The notes beneath the pieces are model-generated. The model had not been told where the DNA came from. It was given only the letters and a program-made list of their open reading frames with translations, and searched no databases. A stretch of DNA of 8,978 nucleotides, from NCBI GenBank assembly GCA_048882505.1, contig JBHLRO010000047.1, forward strand, positions 1 to 8,978. The letters run 5' to 3'. Both the position numbers and the translations under genes were made by a program. This stretch comes from Candidatus Thorarchaeota archaeon. Lineage in GTDB: Archaea; Asgardarchaeota; Heimdallarchaeia; Hodarchaeales; Hodarchaeaceae. Numbering within the stretch: position 1 is the first letter of the stretch; each line of letters begins with the position of its first letter. Below, piece after piece: positions 390 through 8,831 of the stretch.

Positions 390-493
390 GGTGTTGAAAC
401 GAGTAGTCCAATCGTCAATAAGGATTAGGAGAAAAAAGGAGCGCAACGGAAGAGGTAAAGGGAAATTGGATTGATCTGATATCTAAACACGTT
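390..493 (+). repeat. Copy E1 (most degenerate) of a 4-copy ~95-bp intergenic element
   Basis: 390-417 GGTGTTGAAACGAGTAGTCCAATCGTCA matches 5774-5801 at 25/28 nt. Also carries AGGATTAGGA (421-430) and the 3' block GGATTGATCTGATATCT (468-484). ATCGTCA-to-TCTGAT spacing is 64 nt, as in E3 and E4. Confidence 0.85.
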
Positions 494-524
494 TATTAAC
501 AGTTGCGGTAGAATAAAACCAACG

Positions 525-889
525 GTGGGATTCGAGCTGGACCAACAGGGAATCACTTGGAGCGGGGCAGGGATGAAGGTGCTTTTTGACCTGGTGCTAT
601 TCTTAATCGGATGGTTGTTTTTTACGTATGTTCCGGAGGAGCAGGCAAAAACCTGGGCGCTGGCCTTGGTTCTAATGATTGTCGGGGGATACCTCCTCGT
701 AAAACATGTACCTCTGCTACTTTCTGGACTCATGGTGGAGGAATCGATAACGACCCCGCGCATCTGTCTAGCCTGCCATTTTGCCAATCCAAGCATATAA
801 GTGAAAATTGCAGCAAGTGTGGAGCAGGGCTTCCACCAAGGGAACAAGAACAGGAAATTAGGTTTAAGGGTAATCTCGATTCTTGGTAA
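525..889 (+). pseudogene. Frameshifted small membrane protein with C-terminal zinc ribbon (paralog A of 5420..5758 and 8502..8831)
   Basis: ORF 525..800 aligns with 8502..8831 (KVLFDLVLFLIG / KVLIGLMLFFIG; LMIVGGYLLVKHVP / VMILGGNLLLKHTP; PRICLAC / PRICPEC) but stops after the first CxxC. The second CxxC (SENCSKCGAGLPPREQ, cf. SVRCNNCGTALPPDEQ) is in the frame of ORF 611..889. Removing AT at 795-796 restores C-x2-C-x10-C-x2-C. Homologous start position is CTG 537; ATG 573 is an alternative. An assembly error cannot be excluded. Confidence 0.8.
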
Positions 890-1592
890 TCAATTCAATA
901 TAGAATCTTACCAAATCCTTCTCTGGAACTTCGTCAGGAGTTCCCTTCCACAGGAGTCTACCGTGGTGGATAAACAGATATCCAGTGCAAAATCCTCCTA
1001 GATCTTCCAAAGAATGACTAGAAACCAAAAAACTGGTTCCAAGGATATTGTGATATTCTACAACAATATCTTTCAATCTAACTTTTGCCAGGGGATCTAG
1101 ATTTGCAAAGGGTTCGTCCATAATAGCAATTTCAGGAAGGCCCATCAAGCATTGAACAATGGCCAATTTCTGTTTCATACCGGACGATAAATACCGAATT
1201 TCTCTTTCTAATATTAGCTCTGCTTCTAACTTTAGGAGCAGATATTGAATAAGAGGATTGATACGCGTAGCGGAGATTCCATAGGCTTCAGAAACAGTCC
1301 TAAGATACTCCTTAGAGACATAACCAGAAGGAAAACGCTGCGAAGTAAAACAAACCCCAATTTTCTGTTTTAATTTGAGATTTTCCGTACTCGGATCCTG
1401 GCCAAGGACATTCAGGCGGCCGGAAGAGGGGCGGATTATGTTCCAGAGGAGATTAAGAAGTGTGGTCTTGCCTGCTCCATTGGGGCCAATTATCCCCCAA
1501 ATTCCCGGTTTCAGGGCAAAAGAGACATTTACTAACGCTTTAGTGCTCCCGTAGTTTTTACACAAACTTTCCGTGTTGATGATTTCCTTCAT
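864..1592 (-). CDS. ABC transporter ATP-binding protein (ABC-2 / CcmA-like exporter ATPase)
   Basis: Walker A GPNGAGKTT, signature LSSGMKQ, Walker B IAIMDEP, H-loop SSH. Start placed at ATG 1592 (MKEIIN), which overlaps the permease stop as ATGA and follows GAGGAG; the ORF track's 1634 start is probably too long. Confidence 0.95.
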   Translation of the reverse strand: MKEIINTESLCKNYGSTKALVNVSFALKPGIWGIIGPNGAGKTTLLNLLWNIIRPSSGRLNVLGQDPSTENLKLKQKIGVCFTSQRFPSGYVSKEYLRTVSEAYGISATRINPLIQYLLLKLEAELILEREIRYLSSGMKQKLAIVQCLMGLPEIAIMDEPFANLDPLAKVRLKDIVVEYHNILGTSFLVSSHSLEDLGGFCTGYLFIHHGRLLWKGTPDEVPEKDLVRFYIELITKNRDYP

Positions 1593-3244
1593 AGGTCTCT
1601 CCTCATAAATACGATACTGCCGACGATAATACATCCTAATGCAAGGAGAAAATGAAATCCAATACTAATCCCTAGATCGAGTATTGCATCATGTAGGAAG
1701 AGCAATTTGTCTTCCAGTATCCAGTCTGGAGCTATTGGTCTGATAAAAAAGTATTCTATCACTCGTTCAGGAACGAAAATTGAGAGATAGGAGTCAAATG
1801 TTTCCTGGGCATGAGGAAGGTCTAGAAACTCTTGTGTATAGGGAAAAAAGCGTGATTCAAGATCCGCTGAGACGAAAAACCAACTAGCTATGAATCCTAA
1901 CCATGAAATTACAGTGTAACGGGAATTCTTCAGGATTAGAGCCAATAAAAGAGACAAACATGAGAGGGTAAATGAGACAATGCCATAAGCAAAGAAGGGA
2001 ATCCAAAGCAGATCGATCGGTTGAAATCCAATGGTTGGGTTTCTCAGAGGAACTAAAACAAAGGTACCCCCGACAAATGCAACGCAGATCAAAAAAGACA
2101 CTAGTATCAATACACTAAGCTTACCGAGAATATATCCCTTTCTCGATAATGGCAGGGCTAATCTTACCTTGTGGACTCCCTCATCGAAATCACGACATAA
2201 GAAAAGAAGTGTAATTGTTAGAATAATGCTGAGTACAATTATATAAAAACTAACACCGATGTTTCCTATTGTTGTTCCAAATTCCCCGAAAACATAGCCT
2301 CCTGAAGGCTCCCAGGCCGTATAAACCTCACGAAAACGTTCAAGAATGATAGTTACGGTTAAAGGGATGAACAAAATTACAAACGGACTCCCAAACACCT
2401 GAAAAAGCTCGAACTTGAAAAGGATGAGGAAGTTTTTGATCCTAATAGGAGGCAATCGTCCATAAGGAACAGATTCCTTGCTGTCAGAATCTTTAGTGGA
2501 GGAGTTCATTCCTTCTAAAACACTAACTAGGGTAGAAGCATTTGAACCGTTAATTATAGATCGAGGTGGTTGGTTCTTCGAGATAGAGGCCTTTATCGTT
2601 GGAAGTAAGGTAATGCCGATACCTAGTACAAGGGCTAAAGTCAACAAACCAGTTCCAAGCCACATTATTCCATTATCTTGGCCAATGATTCCATACTCGT
2701 CTACAATCAGTGTTCCAGTCAAATTCTGGGCAATTGAAAAAGCATCGGCCAAATAAATGACGATATACGCGTCATCCATTGGAATCGAAAGATGGGTTGT
2801 TCTTCGCTGTGATAATTGTTCATCATAGGTGAGATTAAGGAGATGATGAGCGTGTGGAGCCAAATTTTCAAGTGTGATATCCGTACGCCAATTCCGGTTC
2901 TCATCTTGAAGAAGGGGTTGGTCTTCTTTCCCGTTCAACAACAAAACGTGTATGCCAAATCCTGGGTCAGTTTCCGCAGTGAATCTATTTAACACCTCGA
3001 TCTGCTGACCTACTACCCCTTGAGGGAATTTCCCCCAGTTTAGTACTTGGTAGTTCTTTTCATTGTCGTCCCACCCAAATCTATACACATATCCCCCATA
3101 AACATTATATCCCATTGTAAGATTGGAATACCCTCCAACCAGAATCAGACTGGCAAGAATTAACCCAAGACTGACATAAATATAGCTCCGGGACTTGGGA
3201 CTGAGGTTGAATCGAAACTCGACATATCGACCAATTACACCCAT
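1589..3244 (-). CDS. ABC-2 type permease with an additional N-terminal TM / extracellular domain / TM module
   Basis: C-terminal half has about six hydrophobic segments and the ABC-2 motif DFDEGVHKVRLALPLSRKGYILGKL, and is translationally coupled to the ATPase. N-terminal half has TM, ~150-aa soluble region, TM and a Ser/Lys-rich linker. ATG 3244 preferred over TTG 3292, which overlaps the upstream gene by 32 nt. Confidence 0.88.
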   Translation of the reverse strand: MGVIGRYVEFRFNLSPKSRSYIYVSLGLILASLILVGGYSNLTMGYNVYGGYVYRFGWDDNEKNYQVLNWGKFPQGVVGQQIEVLNRFTAETDPGFGIHVLLLNGKEDQPLLQDENRNWRTDITLENLAPHAHHLLNLTYDEQLSQRRTTHLSIPMDDAYIVIYLADAFSIAQNLTGTLIVDEYGIIGQDNGIMWLGTGLLTLALVLGIGITLLPTIKASISKNQPPRSIINGSNASTLVSVLEGMNSSTKDSDSKESVPYGRLPPIRIKNFLILFKFELFQVFGSPFVILFIPLTVTIILERFREVYTAWEPSGGYVFGEFGTTIGNIGVSFYIIVLSIILTITLLFLCRDFDEGVHKVRLALPLSRKGYILGKLSVLILVSFLICVAFVGGTFVLVPLRNPTIGFQPIDLLWIPFFAYGIVSFTLSCLSLLLALILKNSRYTVISWLGFIASWFFVSADLESRFFPYTQEFLDLPHAQETFDSYLSIFVPERVIEYFFIRPIAPDWILEDKLLFLHDAILDLGISIGFHFLLALGCIIVGSIVFMRRDL

Positions 3245-3260
3245 TCTATTTCCATTCTTC

Positions 3261-3683
3261 TTATTGTGGGGGACACGTTTTAGCCTGGTCAAAATCGACT
3301 AGGGCTTTCATGTGAATCATACTTTTCCCGAATTCAGTGATATTGTAGTAATTAGAGTCCTTAAAGAGTTTTACGGTCTCTATACATCCTACACGGGTAA
3401 GGATTTTCAGATGGTGGTTGATACTCTTCCAGCTGAATTTTAATCGCTGACTCAACTGATAACAATTCATCGGACCCCCTCCAACTAAAGCCTGTAAGAT
3501 TTTAATTCTCGTCCCTTTTCCTCTCGATCGTTCCAAAAGAACTCTTACAACATTATTCTGGCTTTTATCGATAGTCCTACTAATCGCTCCTTTAGGTTTG
3601 GCCACAGTTCGATCTTTATTTCTTTCGTCCAACAGTATCCCTGCCTTCCTTAGATGCTTGTAGAAATTAGCATTATAATCCAT
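3261..3683 (-). CDS. ArsR-family winged helix-turn-helix transcriptional regulator
   Basis: SRGKGTRIKILQALVGGGPMNCYQLSQRLKFSWKSINHHLKILTRVGCIE matches the archaeal ArsR/HTH_20-like pattern (R-x2-I-L...PMN-x2-QL-x3-L-x5-I-x-HHL-x2-L-x3-G-x-I). First gene of the ABC operon. Confidence 0.85.
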   Translation of the reverse strand: MDYNANFYKHLRKAGILLDERNKDRTVAKPKGAISRTIDKSQNNVVRVLLERSRGKGTRIKILQALVGGGPMNCYQLSQRLKFSWKSINHHLKILTRVGCIETVKLFKDSNYYNITEFGKSMIHMKALVDFDQAKTCPPQ

Positions 3684-3714
3684 TAAATTAGATCAAGGCC
3701 ATCATGATGCCTCC

Positions 3715-3721
3715 TTATAAA
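3715..3721 (-). promoter_or_regulatory. Putative archaeal TATA box of the ArsR-ABC operon
   Basis: Minus strand reads TTTATAA, 32-38 nt upstream of ATG 3683, consistent with a short-leader transcript starting near 3690. Confidence 0.5.
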
Positions 3722-4550
3722 CCTAGTAGGTCAATATCTTCACCACATTTTTCCAATGATTGAGGTAAAAAAGCTCAATGGCAGAGAGAAAGACAAAATC
3801 CAAAAAAATAACTTAGGTTTCCTAACTGTTCTAACCCATTAGCATTTGCCGTATACAAAAGGTTGGTTAGGTAATGACTGGAACTTCTATGCAGTGGGGT
3901 GAATAATGGGAGCACTACGAGAAGTAAGGTTATTAAAGAAGATTTCAGCTGAATCCATGTGCTTTGAAATCTCGAGGAATTGGAAGGGTCATTCTTAAGT
4001 GGATTAAGACTTTTTTTCCAAAATCTGTGCCCTGAAACACCAATTTACTTTTGCATCGGACCTTAAACTTAATGCAGTACTCCCCGGAATGGTAAAAATG
4101 AAATGTGATAGATCTTTACCGCGTTACTGATATTGCTTTAGGGAGAATTCCCCACTTGTCAAAGGTTCCCAAATAATTTGATTTATCTGCTTTGGTTTTC
4201 AATCTTTTTATCTAGCGTTAAAATGGCATCCAATGTACGGTTGAAAAGGGTTTTGTAATTATTTCCTTGGGTCCTATAATATACCATCACCTACAGGTAA
4301 CCATAATTCCCTAGATCTGAAAGATAACCTAAAATCACAGGGTACTCGAGGGAACAATACAAAACACGATTATTAATCGCAAGGTGTGTCGAACATGTTC
4401 ACTATATTTTTGCAGTAGGACTCAAGTGAGATATAGCTTAACCATGATTTATCACTAATTTTACCATAATTTGTAAATTAAGCTTATTAATGAGTTTAAG
4501 AGGAAAAATACGGCATCTATGTTATGATCAGTTTCGGTGAGGTGATAATA

Positions 4551-5060
4551 TTGGCAAGATCTAAAATGAAAATGTTTTCAGTACTATTGATCCCTTTGAT
4601 GGCGATGTTAGTTTCAACGATACAGGTTCAGGCAGTAGAAGTTGGTTACTATTCAGCTACCAGCTATAGAGTCTCTTCCACTGCAAATTGGAACAGTCAA
4701 TCGGGGTACGCTCCGGATTACTATCTCCAGGTCTCGTATCGAAATACTGATGGTTCTTGGAATGACAAAGCATTAAGGTTTCTTGTTTCGGCCGTGGCTA
4801 ATTTTGATATCTACTTTAATCCAGAAAAATCCTTAGGAAGTGGCACAGCTCGCAACGATGGTTACACTCCAGTTAGAGTAAGACCCATGGTAATAAGATA
4901 TTACTTTATATGGATATTTTTACATTCTCAAAGTATCTATGGAGGTTGGTGGGAACTCACACCACCAATAGGCACAAGTGCGCATGCTTACACCATGAGT
5001 GCTTATTATTACGGCGGTGGTGCCTCAACCTGGTATTTCCACATCACTAGGGCATATTAA
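4551..5060 (+). CDS. Hypothetical secreted protein (signal peptide; Tyr/Trp/Gly/Ser/Thr-rich, Cys-free)
   Basis: Open frame 4524..5060. GAGGTGAT at 4539-4546 favours in-frame TTG 4551. N-terminus has a basic stretch, hydrophobic core and VQA-type cleavage site. Followed by a T-tract. No family recognised. Confidence 0.75.
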   Translation: MARSKMKMFSVLLIPLMAMLVSTIQVQAVEVGYYSATSYRVSSTANWNSQSGYAPDYYLQVSYRNTDGSWNDKALRFLVSAVANFDIYFNPEKSLGSGTARNDGYTPVRVRPMVIRYYFIWIFLHSQSIYGGWWELTPPIGTSAHAYTMSAYYYGGGASTWYFHITRAY

Positions 5061-5075
5061 ACGTGCATACCTGGG

Positions 5076-5089
5076 TTTTTCTTTTTTTT
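5076..5089 (+). terminator. Oligo-T archaeal-type terminator
   Basis: TTTTTCTTTTTTTT 15 nt after the stop codon at 5060. Confidence 0.65.
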
Positions 5090-5276
5090 CTGAACCGTGC
5101 CTACAACCGAGACCGGCCAGAACGAGGAAGAATGGCCGAACTCAGATTTCTCAAAAGCAGTAACCGTTCCGGAGTTGCTAGGGAAGTATCAACATCAAAC
5201 GGAGTAAAAACCTACGTTTGAGACCCGGTACTCAAGATATTCTTACACCGAGACTAAATTTAGATCAGCTTTCCAA

Positions 5277-5379
5277 GAAATGAGCGGCCCCATCGTCAGA
5301 CAGGATTAGGATAGACGAAGTATCATAGAGCGATGGAAGAGTGGGGGTGAAAAGGATCGGTCTGATGTCTGGTACCGCT
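5277..5379 (+). repeat. Copy E2 of the 4-copy element
   Basis: 5292-5311 ATCGTCAGACAGGATTAGGA matches 8377-8396 at 19/20. 5354-5372 GGATCGGTCTGATGTCTGG matches 8434-8452 at 17/19. Block spacing 69 nt. Confidence 0.9.
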
Positions 5380-5419
5380 GATCTGATTGAGGGTAAGAGT
5401 GAAGTAAGGTGGGATTAAA

Positions 5420-5758
5420 TTGGATGTTCAAAAAGAAAATTTGAGGAGGTGGGATTTCAAAGCAATCCTGGGGGTAGGCCTGACTATGGGAGCATTTGTG
5501 ATCCTTCTACTCCCAACACATGGAGTGGGCAGGTTTGACCTGTTAGGATTTCTTATTCGTGCGGGGATCGGCTTGGTTACCCTGATCCTAGGGAGCTATT
5601 TACTCATCACACATGCGCCCTTCCTGCGTGTGGAACAGAGATGGTGGAAACCAGCAGAAATCTGGATCTGTCGTAAATGTGGATTTGGGAACAAAAGAAC
5701 CAGAACCCAGTGTGTCAAGTGTGGCGTGGAATTTCAAGCCGTCGATCGTAAGAGGTAA
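5420..5758 (+). CDS. Small membrane protein with C-terminal zinc ribbon (paralog B)
   Basis: Two to three hydrophobic segments, LILGSYLLITHAP motif shared with paralogs A and C, CRKC-x10-CVKC zinc ribbon (zinc_ribbon_2/DZR-like spacing). TTG start after GGTGGGATT. Confidence 0.8.
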   Translation: MDVQKENLRRWDFKAILGVGLTMGAFVILLLPTHGVGRFDLLGFLIRAGIGLVTLILGSYLLITHAPFLRVEQRWWKPAEIWICRKCGFGNKRTRTQCVKCGVEFQAVDRKR

Positions 5759-5773
5759 TAAGGACAAAGTTTT

Positions 5774-5870
5774 GGTGTCGAAACGAGCAGCCCAATCGTC
5801 AGATAGTAGTAGGATGATAAACCAATCAAAGGTAAGAGAAAGATGGGAACAGGAGCGGTCTGATGTCTGT
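5774..5870 (+). repeat. Copy E3 of the 4-copy element (directly after paralog B; no paralog downstream)
   Basis: GGTGTCGAAACGAGCAGCCCAATCGTCAGATAG ... GGAGCGGTCTGATGTCTG. Block spacing 64 nt. Confidence 0.9.
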
Positions 5871-5875
5871 GGATC

Positions 5876-5881
5876 TTTTTT
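5876..5881 (+). terminator. Possible oligo-T terminator immediately after E3
   Basis: TTTTTT 5 nt after the 3' conserved block of E3. Confidence 0.35.
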
Positions 5882-6040
5882 CTAGGATACAGGCATCAAA
5901 TGGGAGATTTGTTGAATTCGCATCATTCTGGCAGGTTGACTTTAGAAACATTAATTTATTGAAAATGTGTGAAAACAGGATAATCGTTTTGAAGAGCCAC
6001 AATATTTAGATTTTAGCATACGATGAGCAGGGGTGATTGA

Positions 6041-7282
6041 ATGGTCGCTATGAGAAATGGGTTGGGCTATGACACGATTTGGGGAATTATTGGCATAATA
6101 GCGGGATTGTTTTGGATAGGATTCATTACTAATACCTTCTCGGGCTTTTCCGCGGTTATGACAGAGCAAATAGAAATCACCGTACTACTGATAAACGGGT
6201 TCTTTTCCCTGTTCATAATTTTTGGCATCGTTATGCTAATAGTCGATTATAGAAAACGAAAACAAGTAGGGTATGCTGTGTATTGGGGAAGGGTGTTAAG
6301 AACCTTCATTTCCTTTGAATCGGAACCTCGTCCCATTTCAAGGCAGGAGATTGGGTATTACAAAACACGAGAAGAACAGTATAGGGGAACAACCTTGGTG
6401 AAATATCGAAATGAATCCTATCACTTTGAAATTAGCTATCCTGAGGACTGGAGTGTCAATGAGGATGTTCCTGGAGCGGTGGTTATTTTCACCCCGTTTG
6501 AAAGATATCCAGCGGGTTTCGGGGAGAATTTTTCGATTGGTTTTACGGAACTAACTCAAGGGAAGACCTTAGATGAATATCAGGATGAAAATCTCGAAGT
6601 CTTGCAGGAAACATTGCCTGCGGCCGGGGTTCAGAAGTTCAAAATTCATGAAAAAACGTTGATAACGCTAGCAAATTCGTCTGCGGGAAAACTGGTCTAT
6701 TCAGGAAGCGTCCAACAGTTTAATATTACGTGGCTCGCAGTAATGCTATTAACTGATGAACACTTTATCGAAATTACTTTTACAACCGATTCAAAGCGCT
6801 TTAAACAACTAGAAAAGACATACAATAGCATTGTTGAGTCGTTCACGTTTTTTACGGAAACCCCAATTCACGATGAATTATTAGAAGAAAAAGAGTGGGA
6901 AGAGGATATCGAAATCCTGCTAAAATTCAGAGACTTTACATTTACTAATTCTATTGAACTAATGTACCAGGTCAATTCGACGGATCCAGTGTTGTTATTG
7001 GAGCAGATAAGAAGTGTCAGTAACTATTCGATTTTTGCCGCAGATTTCTCTGAACCAAATGCTGTGTTTGAGAATATCCAGGAACTTTCATTCGTTAACA
7101 TAGATCGAATGGGAGTGATTTCAATGGAAAATGTGTTCATTGGTGTATTTGTCACAGACAAAGGTGTTTTAACTATTATTGGAGGAGTTTTGACACCGAG
7201 TCAGCAGGCGGAGATCAGAGAATTGTTTACAAGAAAAGCCAAGAAATTTCATGACGTATTTTTCCCAGGAAAGCACGAATAA
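6041..7282 (+). CDS. Membrane protein: 2 N-terminal TM helices, PsbP-like (Mog1/PsbP fold) domain, uncharacterised C-terminal domain
   Basis: SD GGGGTGA 4 nt before ATG. Two hydrophobic helices. Central YRNESYHFEISYPEDW...TLDEY...ITL...LVYS...ITFTT...YNSIVESFTF follows the prokaryotic PsbP-related pattern. Confidence 0.8.
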   Translation: MVAMRNGLGYDTIWGIIGIIAGLFWIGFITNTFSGFSAVMTEQIEITVLLINGFFSLFIIFGIVMLIVDYRKRKQVGYAVYWGRVLRTFISFESEPRPISRQEIGYYKTREEQYRGTTLVKYRNESYHFEISYPEDWSVNEDVPGAVVIFTPFERYPAGFGENFSIGFTELTQGKTLDEYQDENLEVLQETLPAAGVQKFKIHEKTLITLANSSAGKLVYSGSVQQFNITWLAVMLLTDEHFIEITFTTDSKRFKQLEKTYNSIVESFTFFTETPIHDELLEEKEWEEDIEILLKFRDFTFTNSIELMYQVNSTDPVLLLEQIRSVSNYSIFAADFSEPNAVFENIQELSFVNIDRMGVISMENVFIGVFVTDKGVLTIIGGVLTPSQQAEIRELFTRKAKKFHDVFFPGKHE

Positions 7283-7370
7283 AACAAAGCTTGATGTGGA
7301 TTTACATGAAACCTGAAGTAATTCATGGTTATGACGAGTCCACGACCATTAAATCAACCTGCAAGAGGAT

Positions 7371-8327
7371 GTGATTCGGATCTATACTCGATTTACTGAG
7401 ACCATGAAGAATATACGCAAAGAACCAATGGAAGTAATGAGACGGGGAAATTTGCCTTCTAGAAAATGTATTAGGTTATATTTCATTCTTCTTTGCGTAT
7501 TAACAATTAGTGTGAGTCAAGTACAGGGGAAGGTGGTAGTAGAGCGGACTAATACTTACACCTGCGTAGCAGATGCGTATGTCGATTCAACAAATGCCAA
7601 TAGCAACTATGGGAGTGCCGATCTCAGAGTCTCATTCTGGACATTAACGTCATTGAATGTTTCTGAAATTTCTTTCTTGGCATTTTTTGTGACAGGACTC
7701 CCATCGGATGCCGTTATTTCTGCAGTAAAGCTTAGTATAAGTGTCAAATTCATGCCATACGATGATCATTCAAAAATGATTGAAGTGTATCAAACTGATT
7801 TATTTGATGAGACCACTCTCACCTGGGAGAATATGCCCTCCATTAATGAGGCAGATACCCTCTTTGTCGCTCGTGAACTTATTACTTCGGATAGTAGATG
7901 GGTGTTTACTCTATCTCAAGATGGTGCGGGAGAGTTCGAGGCACACACGGTAACGGGGAATGGCAATTTTTACTTCTTTTTGATGACAACAACCGACAAT
8001 TCGGCGGCGATTACGTTTGATTCTAGAGATGACTTTTTGAATCCTCCCAAATTGGATGTGACTTACACTTCTACAGCGGAGGGGGCTAATACTTCTCCTA
8101 CTACGGAAGGAAATGGAGATATACTCGTACTTATGATCATAGGGGTACCAATTCTGGCCATTATTGGCGGCACAATCTATTCAAGAAGGAAAAGGAAGAG
8201 ACAAACTGAAACGTTGAGTCGGCAACCCATCTTTGTCAGCCCGAAAACGGGATATTGTACTAAGTGTGGGCACCCAATGAGGCCCAATGCCATCTTTTGT
8301 GAAAATTGTGGCACGAGGAAAGAATAA
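7371..8327 (+). CDS. Type-I membrane protein: signal peptide, DNRLRE/CBM96-like extracellular domain, TM, basic cluster, C-terminal zinc ribbon
   Basis: ADAYVDS...NYGS, LPSDAVISAVKL, DETTLTWENMP and FDSRD...PKLDVTY follow the DNRLRE/CBM96 pattern. Thr/Ser linker, TM ILVLMIIGVPILAIIGGTIY, SRRKRKR, CTKC-x10-CENC. True start is probably ATG 7428 or 7437. Confidence 0.85.
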   Translation: MIRIYTRFTETMKNIRKEPMEVMRRGNLPSRKCIRLYFILLCVLTISVSQVQGKVVVERTNTYTCVADAYVDSTNANSNYGSADLRVSFWTLTSLNVSEISFLAFFVTGLPSDAVISAVKLSISVKFMPYDDHSKMIEVYQTDLFDETTLTWENMPSINEADTLFVARELITSDSRWVFTLSQDGAGEFEAHTVTGNGNFYFFLMTTTDNSAAITFDSRDDFLNPPKLDVTYTSTAEGANTSPTTEGNGDILVLMIIGVPILAIIGGTIYSRRKRKRQTETLSRQPIFVSPKTGYCTKCGHPMRPNAIFCENCGTRKE

Positions 8328-8363
8328 AACTGATGCTGACAAATTAAAACCATCCAGATAGAG

Positions 8364-8460
8364 GACGAGTAGTTCGATCGTCAGATAGGATTAGGAGGCA
8401 AAAGACGAACAGATGAGGAAAATCAGTGGAAATGGAGCGATCTGATGTCTGGCTACGTCG
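8364..8460 (+). repeat. Copy E4 of the 4-copy element (best-paired copy)
   Basis: ACGAGTAGTTCGATCGTCAGATAGGATTAGGA ... GGAGCGATCTGATGTCTGGCTACGTCG. Block spacing 64 nt. Inner helix 8379-8386/8440-8447 and outer helix GTAGTT/GGCTAC. Confidence 0.9.
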
Positions 8461-8501
8461 TTACAGCGAGTGTTGGATAGGAGAGTTGGGTAGGATTTAA
8501 G

Positions 8502-8831
8502 GTGAATGCGCACGAAAAAATCTCAGACTGGGTAGGGCTTAAAGTGCTTATTGGCCTCATGCTGTTTTTTATCGGATTGGTAAACTTCCTCATGATGCCT
8601 GTGCACATAATAACGAAAATTTGGGTGTTAGGGCTGCTGGTGATGATTTTAGGTGGGAACCTGCTGCTAAAACATACGCCCTCCTTACTGATAGGCCAAA
8701 GAGGGATAGCTGCGTCGGGAGTCCCTAGAATCTGTCCGGAATGTCAATTTGCCAATCGAAGTGATAGTGTCAGGTGTAACAATTGTGGAACAGCGCTTCC
8801 TCCAGACGAACAGGACTATGGGGGAGGGTAA
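8502..8831 (+). CDS. Small membrane protein with C-terminal zinc ribbon (paralog C)
   Basis: Two hydrophobic segments, CPEC-x10-CNNC. Clear similarity to 525..889 and weaker similarity to 5420..5758. GTG start after GGTAGGATT. Confidence 0.82.
   Translation: MNAHEKISDWVGLKVLIGLMLFFIGLVNFLMMPVHIITKIWVLGLLVMILGGNLLLKHTPSLLIGQRGIAASGVPRICPECQFANRSDSVRCNNCGTALPPDEQDYGGG

Follow-up and report, generated by a model that had tools for sequence, protein, structure and literature searches.

Orphan copies of the 23S rRNA 3' trailer lie between the genes of a mosaic accessory island in a Hodarchaeales-type archaeon

In archaea, the leader and the trailer of an rRNA form a helix that is cut by the splicing endonuclease EndA, a step followed by circularisation (PMC7038931, PMC10351888, PMC7714728). 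Such processing stems are known once per rRNA gene. A second type of locus is the integron-type cassette array (CALIN), for which enrichment in Asgard archaea has been reported (PMC9668308). In these arrays, as in integrons and in super-integrons with VCR-type repeats, co-oriented repeats of ~100 nt lie between small and diverse cassettes that often carry toxin-antitoxin genes, and the arrays differ among close relatives. Tandem islands at the 3' ends of tRNA and tmRNA genes are a further precedent, in that accessory blocks stacked behind a stable-RNA gene are bounded by direct repeats of its 3' part (attL/attR). In naturally transformable bacteria, foreign DNA can also enter by homology-facilitated illegitimate recombination, that is, via one conserved anchor.

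The locus studied here shares features with each of these systems. As in the archaeal pre-rRNA processing stem, its repeat stands directly after 23S, is complementary to the leader, and has in predicted folds a central helix of 4-5 bp with a 3-nt bulge on the trailer strand. However, ~30 extra trailer strands are found here between protein genes, without a leader, and the predicted leader-side bulge of 2-4 nt would not make a strictly canonical bulge-helix-bulge (BHB) site. The co-orientation, repeat length and cassette-like surroundings recall integrons and CALINs, but attC cores, IntI, attI and a fixed crossover point are all missing, and the repeat copies an rRNA flank and often heads a gene instead of trailing it. 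As in tandem islands, directly repeated copies of a stable-RNA gene's 3' end flank the accessory blocks, and the 310-nt 23S fragments among them have one left boundary; yet the target is the 23S tail plus trailer, no integrase was found in or near the blocks, most repeats come without 23S sequence, the modules are small (0.5-5 kb), and junctions are distributed across the repeat. With homology-facilitated illegitimate recombination the locus has in common a conserved anchor (23S tail plus trailer) beside variable cargo, and variable outer junctions, although that process is described for bacteria and for archaea or a 23S locus serves as a mechanistic analogy only. A literature search of limited coverage returned no description of rRNA-trailer repeats between genes.

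The window, that is, the whole 8,978-nt stretch that was analysed (contig JBHLRO010000047.1), carries four copies of the repeat, E1 to E4 (Table 1). A first-pass annotation of the same DNA had described four plus-strand copies with two conserved blocks, and both the copies and the blocks were recovered. The spacing of the blocks is the same in E1, E3 and E4, and the centre of E2 is 5 nt longer. AT-rich, TATA-like stretches are indeed present upstream of E2 and E4, and the innermost pair of the helix proposed between the blocks reads U-A in E4, C-G in E2 and U.G in E3, as had been claimed. The 3' block of E1 has ATA in place of the majority ATG. The repeat had not been recognised as a known family, in line with which an Rfam scan of the window gave no match at E<=1; a scan of related loci returned LSU rRNA and nothing else.

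Table 1. Positions of the trailer copies, of the small genes behind them and of the intervening cargo in the window
Feature	Position	Strand	5' core	3' block	Basis and content
E1, orphan 23S-trailer copy	391..496	+	411-430	468-485	CM R1 match, 90.5 bits
Small membrane + zinc-ribbon protein gene behind E1	525..800	+			Alignment, ORF list; no Pfam match
Cargo between E1 and E2	864..5060	- then +			ArsR-type regulator, ABC-2 permease, ABC ATPase (-); 178-aa secreted-type ORF (+); Pfam
E2, orphan 23S-trailer copy	5272..5382	+	5292-5311	5354-5371	CM match, 89.8 bits
Paralogous small membrane + zinc-ribbon gene behind E2	5420..5758	+			Weak Pfam zinc-ribbon match
E3, orphan 23S-trailer copy	5775..5880	+	5795-5814	5852-5869	CM match, 93.5 bits
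Cargo between E3 and E4	6041..8327	+			PsbP-like membrane protein, CBM96 protein with zinc ribbon; Pfam
E4, orphan 23S-trailer copy	8357..8462	+	8376-8395	8434-8451	CM match, 99.7 bits
Paralogous small membrane + zinc-ribbon gene behind E4	8502..8831	+			Pfam search, alignment

Each of E1 to E4 is an orphan copy of the 3' trailer of 23S rRNA; in the pre-23S processing stem, this trailer forms the 3' strand. The direct junction with the 23S end was read in a relative (G007), the true 23S 3' end of the present genome (G000) not being assembled. On G007 contig C8, the Rfam LSU model ends at position 53937, where the first element starts; at locus L036 of the same genome, the model ends at 3938 and the element occupies 3849-3939. 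On contigs C52 and C45 of G000, and also in G007, G002 and G012, element copies are immediately preceded by fragments of the 23S 3' end, 310 nt long (model positions 2721-2973). All of these fragments begin at one and the same base, which gives a common left boundary in four genomes, and many other copies have kept only the last 12-31 nt of 23S. At the other end of the gene, the G000 23S leader holds an antisense copy of the element (C38:2089-2188). Thus, the earlier view of the repeat as a folded leader, a small RNA or a recombination hairpin has to be amended as regards origin, which traces to the 23S rRNA 3' trailer, while a role in recombination is still plausible.

The element and the 5' leader of 23S are complementary, and cofolding of leader and trailer yielded -101 kcal/mol for G000 and -61 kcal/mol for G007. 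In the two lineages compared, helices A and B are built from different sequences, yet their strands match in each, and both lineages share the core motif. In the predicted fold, this invariant core, UCGUC-AGA-U, contributes the central helix, a bulge of 3 nt and the first part of the helix beyond it to a BHB-like site, the type of site that the tRNA-splicing endonuclease cuts. The trailer-side bulge is predicted as AGA or AGU, and the leader side as a bulge or a small internal loop.

The family is much larger than the window suggests. The first-pass annotation was right that the repeat is real, strand-oriented and non-coding, yet its four copies understate a set of ~30 in G000, a count that is uncertain per cell because the small contigs may mix strain variants. 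Nearly all copies lie on six small contigs and have the same orientation within each contig; seven have only the 5' block and one has only the 3' block. Diverged arrays were detected in 14 of the 21 same-genus genomes searched, and in relatives the island starts at the 23S 3' end. The element usually stands upstream of co-oriented genes, with its 3' block 40-170 nt ahead of their start codons; copies followed by a convergent gene lack this block. This placement is compatible with a role in expression. Across at least 50 copies from five genomes, the same core is retained and conservation is much stronger in the two blocks than in the centre, where change has nearly reached saturation. Relatives have a different element, of ~91 nt overall, with a loop that differs in length and composition and is not purine-rich. 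The island itself contains small membrane and zinc-ribbon proteins, toxin-antitoxin pairs and an ABC transporter, plus Ras-type GTPases in relatives. A single paralogue family occupies the place behind many copies: the E1 and E2 genes share 29% identity and a CxxC...CxxC tail, and behind E3 come an oligo-T run and a decayed remnant of the small paralogue gene (an ORF read from the sequence).

Comparison between contigs revealed a mosaic. The same modules recur in different neighbourhoods at 92-98% identity, and inter-contig homology breaks at no fewer than three places, namely the element start, the 5' core and the 3' end. E1 with its downstream gene is 94% identical to C45:1377-1805, where the twin module is placed behind a 310-nt 23S fragment; the E1 gene ends before the second CxxC pair, unlike the C45 copy, and the cargo that follows it in the window is absent on C45 between the same two modules. 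From its 3' block onward, E2 is 92% identical to C52:5035-5520, whereas the 5' half differs. Since homology is confined to the 3' part, the junction lies inside the element. The gene upstream of E3 and the E3 5' block are common to C52:5481, where the 3' block is absent. E4 matches C48:1-602 at 95% identity from TCGTCAG onward, and the sequence upstream is unrelated. G016 and G000 have elements in common, but not cassettes.

No dedicated recombinase was found with the array, and no integrase near the element copies. The one tyrosine recombinase of G000 (a PF00589 match) is Xer-like and sits on another contig, C5; searches of G000 for a serine recombinase and a Y1 transposase found neither. In G007, G002, G012 and G016, PF00589 matches exist, none of them on array contigs, and a Pfam search of 10 G007 array proteins gave no recombinase. 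G000 and these four genomes are MAGs, in which absence is not proven. Target-site duplications are not visible at the flanks of the copies. A MITE was rejected on that account and because the inverted blocks are internal and the co-oriented copies occur in a single type of island only; the aloposons and Heimdallarchaeum repeat classes (PMC8813620) are unrelated to the element. In G007:C8, similarity to the true trailer does not fall with distance from 23S, so polar ageing of the copies is not seen and a simple insert-at-head polarity does not apply.

We favour the reading, at a probability of roughly 0.55, that the orphan copies provide shared homology where gene modules join and are exchanged behind 23S. 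The mosaic junctions lead us to infer that recombination would occur at the trailer copies. Position and complementarity show that, in the true rRNA transcript, the ~100-nt trailer pairs with the 23S 5' leader to make the processing stem. Trailer copies, some with 12-31 nt or ~310 nt of 23S tail, stand in one direction throughout a mosaic accessory-gene island. DNA segments made of a trailer copy and a neighbour gene would be added and exchanged by recombination in the 23S tail, the 5' core or the 3' block. Exchange inside these conserved tracts would leave each gene module with a trailer copy at its head. Module junctions do fall inside the element, and the region varies between strains and breaks assemblies. 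The much better conservation of the blocks than of the centre is not explained by plain homologous recombination, unless functional trailers often serve to renew the copies or the blocks are functional in themselves.

Several other explanations were weighed. One of them follows the first-pass annotation, which had described a covarying CGUCAGAY/RUCUGAUG helix of 8 bp around a purine-rich stretch: with this helix as its defining feature and the stretch as its loop, the repeat would be an autonomous structured RNA (a leader, riboswitch-like or small RNA). This helix is 90% paired across copies, oligo-T follows some of them, such as E3, and in the absence of an Rfam match the RNA would be new. 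However, covariation did not appear on larger alignments: among 20 own-genome copies, 0 pairs were changed on both sides and the score was reached by 289 of 500 shuffles, and among 52 model-aligned copies from five genomes there was 1 two-sided cell, matched by 260 of 500 shuffles. The innermost C-G pair occurs in 1 of those 52, and relatives show A, G or U at helix position A29 with an unchanged partner. The outer helices that had been suggested are only 48-56% paired, without excess covariation; RNAalifold gave no consensus pair; and single plus-strand copies folded at shuffle level (MFE z of -0.7 to +0.7). Two blocks of such composition contain an 8-nt complementary run in 11-16% of shuffles, the 3' arm is missing in seven copies, and the loop is not maintained in relatives. 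What looks like a helix between the two blocks is thus incidental, their helix-like conservation being inherited from the leader-trailer stem context, and the autonomous structured-RNA reading, now very improbable, is largely refuted. Hardly any credence goes to a coding reading, in which a short ORF (MSG...) upstream of the main gene, and translationally coupled to it, would have its ribosome-binding site and start codon in the 3' block. GGAG does stand 7 nt ahead of ATG (14 of 20 copies) or GTG (4 of 20), differences within subfamilies are mostly synonymous or conservative, and the E2 ORF stops 1 nt before the start codon of the main gene; against this, neither the sequence nor the length (4-47 aa) of the peptide is constant among subfamilies or in relatives, the ATA noted above stands in E1 as well as in its C45 twin, and leader pairing in the true trailer accounts for the same bases. 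A peptide encoded in the 5' block was rejected, the start codon being absent in E3 and E4 as read from the sequence. A CALIN, with the element as an attC site recombined by an integron integrase, is likewise highly improbable. The repeats are co-oriented, alike within a genome and spaced at intervals of 0.5-4 kb, toxin-antitoxin genes and small proteins are among the cargo, and the assembly fragments at the region, all of which would fit. Yet RYYYAAC / GTTRRRY cores are absent from both strands of E1-E4 with 15-nt flanks, the block order is reversed relative to R''...R', the recombinases found are not on array contigs, the junctions do not fall at a single crossover point, and the element is rRNA-derived. 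The lack of R''/R' cores, of an integron integrase and of a single crossover point equally disposes of an attC-like reading of the single-stranded DNA recombination hairpin suggested earlier.

The remaining explanations accept the trailer origin. The orphans may be an RNA cis element, kept as 5' UTRs with a trailer half-site. Pairing of the mRNA with the abundant leader or spacer RNA of 23S, or with a local hairpin, would then lead to its cleavage, ligation or masking and so link expression of the island genes to the synthesis of rRNA. The position of the 3' block relative to co-oriented and convergent genes speaks for this, as do conserved blocks around a diverging centre. Of the full copies in G000, all 18 that lie outside the rRNA locus pair in silico with the 23S leader (ddG -32 to -60 kcal/mol, z -4 to -13), but leader complementarity is already expected from descent alone. 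In relatives, several copies swap the helix-A strand for a local AT hairpin and others pair the GGGCUA of a retained 23S tail with UAGUCC, for which G000 has GGGCUG with CAGUCC; one-sided helix changes are mostly G.U-compatible on the plus strand. On the other hand, helix B positions are free to vary, and the upstream hairpins found in some copies are weak on average (mean z -0.6). Nor is the centre constrained to leader pairing: G-to-A opposite leader C is as common as A-to-G opposite leader U, and selection for a purine-rich centre that pairs with the leader is therefore unsupported by the substitution directions. We regard an RNA cis element as rather unlikely. Unlikely too are neutral relics, functionless by-products of segmental duplication of 23S tail, trailer and neighbour gene, in which gene conversion from the functional trailer would renew the most similar tracts. 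A decay series of intact, half and degenerate copies, mutated sarcin-ricin loops in the G007 23S fragments, a distant G007 copy 97% identical to the true trailer and the one paralogue family behind many copies all agree with relics. Conversion tracts, however, should homogenise the centre too, which is close to saturation; the same core persists across those five genomes; and the modules hold unrelated cargo beyond the paralogue. A bolder extension of shared-homology exchange would make the tail of the 23S gene a dedicated Asgard gene-capture platform, an integrase-less analogue of the integron, with modules added and exchanged via the trailer. Through the half-site retained in each mRNA leader, transcripts would be open to cutting or joining by the factors of rRNA maturation (leader RNA, splicing endonuclease, ligase); we consider this speculative and quite unlikely.

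Our observations suggest that the tail of the 23S gene is a place where new genes get stacked and shuffled. They also call for caution, as short, conserved and complementary repeat blocks can descend from a two-strand context, such as a leader-trailer stem, and need no fold of their own. If exchange at shared trailer homology is correct, the end of the rRNA gene, the most conserved DNA of the cell, would be a docking and shuffling site for accessory genes without a recognisable integrase, and this in the archaeal lineage closest to eukaryotes. Alongside integrons and tRNA-linked islands, it would be a third type of locus at which genes are stacked. The breaks of Asgard assemblies at such regions would be accounted for, and recently acquired genes could be sought there. 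Should the 23S tail in addition be a capture platform, the expression of acquired genes, including those for Ras-type GTPases, would be tied to ribosome synthesis.

All four copies of the repeat described in the first-pass annotation (E1 to E4) were recovered at the positions it gave, all on the + strand. They share a 5' block of ~40 nt, terminating in ATCGTCAGAYAGGATTAGGA, and a 3' block of ~18 nt, GGAKCGRTCTGATGTCTG, separated by a purine-rich centre of 59 nt (64 nt in E2). The annotation recognised no known family; scanning the window returned zero Rfam matches even at E<=1. We then searched for the element with an nhmmer profile, followed by a covariance model, R1 (20 copies), as had been suggested for the host and its relatives, and many further copies were found. 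The source genome (G000; 4.3 Mb in 83 contigs, 94.6% complete) holds ~30 of them by the two methods, almost all on six small contigs of 2.7-9.5 kb each (C45, C47, C48, C52, C59 and C81, of which C47 is the window). There is one copy per 0.5-4 kb, and orientation is uniform within each array contig, with one exception on C48. Seven copies consist of the 5' block alone, typically ahead of a convergent gene, and one of the 3' block alone. The sole inverted pair seen among the arrays lies on C48 (3897-4012, +; 4290-4365, -), both members being 5'-block-only, around an 85-codon ORF. Of 21 further same-genus genomes, 14 had R1 arrays, and the R1 search of 39 genomes outside the genus gave essentially nothing, with 1 weak match. 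In three same-genus relatives, G007, G002 and G012, the element is ~91 nt long and retains the core TCGTCAG-N-T-R-G...AGGAG and a 3' block, CGGTCTGATGTCTG; the centre differs from that of the source genome and is not purine-rich. A full-text literature search yielded no paper on such rRNA-trailer arrays.

When the sister contigs were scanned against Rfam, LSU rRNA was the sole match. A 54.8-kb contig of G007 terminates in a 23S gene (model 2545-2987, - strand), and the first element begins at the exact base where the 23S model stops. In the source genome, the copies at C52:7403 and C45:1807 are each immediately preceded by a ~310-nt fragment of the 23S 3' end (model 2721-2973), and similar fragments occur in the three relatives, two of them in G007. 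All six, from four genomes, start at the same base, in the motif ACGTGTTGGATC immediately ahead of the sarcin-ricin loop; this shared start points to breakage or crossover at a specific site within 23S. The sarcin-ricin loop is universally conserved; since the G007 fragments carry mutations in it, they are decaying duplicates. Many more copies in relatives retain just the final 12-31 nt of 23S, and their left ends differ. On C38 of the source genome, the 5' two-thirds of 23S lies on the - strand, and directly past the 23S 5' end the + strand carries an element-like sequence. Being on the opposite strand beyond that end, its reverse complement belongs to the 23S leader. We put at about 90% the probability that the element represents orphan copies of the 23S trailer, that is, copies away from the 23S gene, the true trailer being the one directly behind it.

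Fragments of the 23S 3' end in the source genome (G000) and three same-genus relatives
Feature	Genome	Contig	Positions
23S 3' fragment	G000	C52	7079-7391
23S 3' fragment	G000	C45	1819-2131
23S 3' fragment	G007	C8	27759-28068
23S 3' fragment	G007	C8	46367-46669
23S 3' fragment	G002	C184	257-566
23S 3' fragment	G012	C390	2653-2962

The element-family 23S of the source genome has its 5' part on C38, and its model positions 2078-2721 are unassembled. A second, full-length 23S rRNA gene (C57:307-3242) is possibly a bin contaminant. It shares only ~76% identity with the C52 fragment across 145 nt of the 3' region, and 64-71% with the near-identical 23S of another relative, G016. Incidentally, ~200 nt at C34:28787-28990 are 73% identical to the region upstream of the 23S leader, judged through the near-identical G016 locus, and may represent an rRNA promoter or leader region that the two share.

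Cofolding of leader and trailer gave -101 kcal/mol for the whole element in the source genome and -61 kcal/mol for the 5' block in G007. The predicted order is the same in both genomes: helix A (9-13 bp), a 4-5 bp helix (UCGUC/GRCGA), a 3-nt trailer-side bulge (AGA or AGU) and helix B (9-12 bp). Helices A and B differ in sequence between the two genomes but are complementary within each lineage, and in the cofold the element's invariant core coincides exactly with the central helix, the bulge and the first part of helix B. Archaeal pre-rRNA forms a processing stem with a bulge-helix-bulge site, and the predicted element-leader duplex has the same architecture (PMC7038931, PMC10351888, PMC7714728). 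Its geometry is just near-canonical, because the leader-side bulge is 2-4 nt. The duplex with the 23S leader is a putative processing stem of the bulge-helix-bulge type. As a separate observation, short AT-rich palindromes (a T-run, 2-4 nt and an A-run) are inserted in many of the relatives' copies. Some separate the 23S tail from the trailer, and others replace the helix-A strand immediately ahead of TCGTCAG (L035:13583 and L036:2145 and 2967, loci on G007:C8; L040:14900, L042:2274 and L043:254 and 6036, loci in relatives). These could be hairpins, terminators or promoter boxes.

The first-pass annotation had proposed another structure, a covarying 8-bp helix between the two blocks of each copy (CGTCAGAY with RTCTGATG). 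Over 20 copies, this helix was 90% paired, but there were 0 two-sided changes and the covariation score was equalled in 289 of 500 shuffles. When copies from five genomes (52 in all) were aligned to a model already containing the helix, there was 1 two-sided cell, and the score was equalled in 260 of 500 shuffles. The annotation's outer helices were 48-56% paired, their covariation not being in excess. RNAalifold on 20 copies predicted zero pairs, and single-copy folds of the + strand were no better than shuffled sequences (z = +0.07, -0.09, +0.73 and -0.73 for the four window copies). An 8-base complementary run between blocks of this composition arises by chance in 11-16% of shuffles, and the A of CAGAY varies (A/G/U) in relatives with its partner U unchanged. 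The G.U changes specific to the + strand are real, yet no more frequent than transitions would yield. The repeat family is real. Both arms are thus conserved as sequence, but the covarying helix joining them is not supported by the data.

Across contigs of the source genome, the same modules recur in differing neighbourhoods. E1 with its gene is 94% identical to C45:1377-1805, where this twin stands behind a 23S fragment and an E2-type module follows directly, without the 4.4-kb transporter block. E4 with its gene is 95% identical to C48:1-602, upstream of which the sequence is unrelated, and there are four instances of the E2 module. Shared sequence gives way to unshared sequence at differing points: inside the element's first 9 nt (C45 copy vs C52 and E1), between CCAA and the centre (E4 vs C48; E3 vs C52:5481) or where the 3' block ends (E2 vs C52:4987); no single crossover point emerged among the aligned copies. 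G016 matches the source genome at 98% identity across the 23S flank; on the contig examined, the two have elements in common but no cassettes. In G007, likeness to the true trailer does not decay with distance from 23S, and a copy 28.7 kb from the gene is 97% identical to that trailer.

E1, E2 and E4 each lie upstream of a paralogue from one gene family, whose small product combines two membrane helices with a C-terminal zinc ribbon; a decayed remnant of the gene lies behind E3. The first gene past the G007 true trailer also encodes a membrane and zinc-ribbon protein. The E1 paralogue is truncated (window 525-889), a stop preceding the second CxxC pair and the remainder being in another frame (611-889). 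Its C45 version is intact (106 aa), the window version being a frameshift or pseudogene. Cargo among the window elements includes an ArsR-type regulator, an ABC-2 transporter, a PsbP-like protein and a CBM96 protein, with AbiE and PIN toxin-antitoxin genes, GTPases (Ras-family and Rag-like) and other, unrelated genes in the sister contigs and the G007 array. An element 3' block heads each of the Ras-family GTPase paralogues at G007:C8 40839-42690, 48653-49301 and 52197-52917 (L035, L036), and in two cases (40843 and 21826) a GTPase frame ends at a stop codon within the 3' block (GGTCTGA). Short ORFs at window 5365-5418, 8445-8480 and 5861-6004 start at an ATG within the 3' block, with GGAG 7 nt before; inside subfamilies most of their differences are synonymous or conservative, and across subfamilies they are unconserved.

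The source genome has one tyrosine recombinase, Xer-like, on C5, with an unusual insertion; a search found no serine recombinase and no Y1 transposase. The open frame of the tyrosine recombinase (C5:210883-212124) has 428 codons vs ~290-310 in G007, G002 and G012. The extra segment, between the N-terminal and catalytic domains, repeats the short motif ILYLL and could be an insertion or an unspliced insert. The four relatives have tyrosine recombinases, none on array contigs, and ten G007 array proteins showed no recombinase domain. Core motifs of attC are absent from E1-E4; the integrons reported in Asgard genomes have a site of a different kind from the 23S-trailer element (PMC9668308).

For the orphan trailers we infer, and favour, a DNA-level role. 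The conserved tracts (23S tail, 5' core and 3' block) would provide shared homology for recombination, and modules, each with its own trailer copy, would be gained, lost and exchanged behind the 23S gene. Such exchange would explain the 23S anchoring, the retained 23S tails and the co-orientation, as well as the within-element junctions, the differences between close relatives and the assembly breaks. By itself, it gives no account of the strong block conservation in orphans. The main rival is an RNA role of the orphan element in the 5' UTR. In its favour, the 3' block lies 40-170 nt ahead of start codons and is missing before convergent genes, every full copy outside the rRNA locus can still pair with the 23S leader in silico, and helix A is swapped for a local hairpin in some relatives. 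Against it, the centre shows no constraint to pair with the leader, and helix B varies freely.

Returning to DNA-level exchange, one possible cause of the block conservation is repeated renewal from the functional trailers of related strains, in which the blocks would be constrained by the leader. We raise it because it would explain why the blocks are conserved but the centres free, and also why the neighbour gene recurs. The origin of the repeat family is the 23S trailer, and its elements are likely the junctions of a recombining accessory island, with an additional RNA role being possible.
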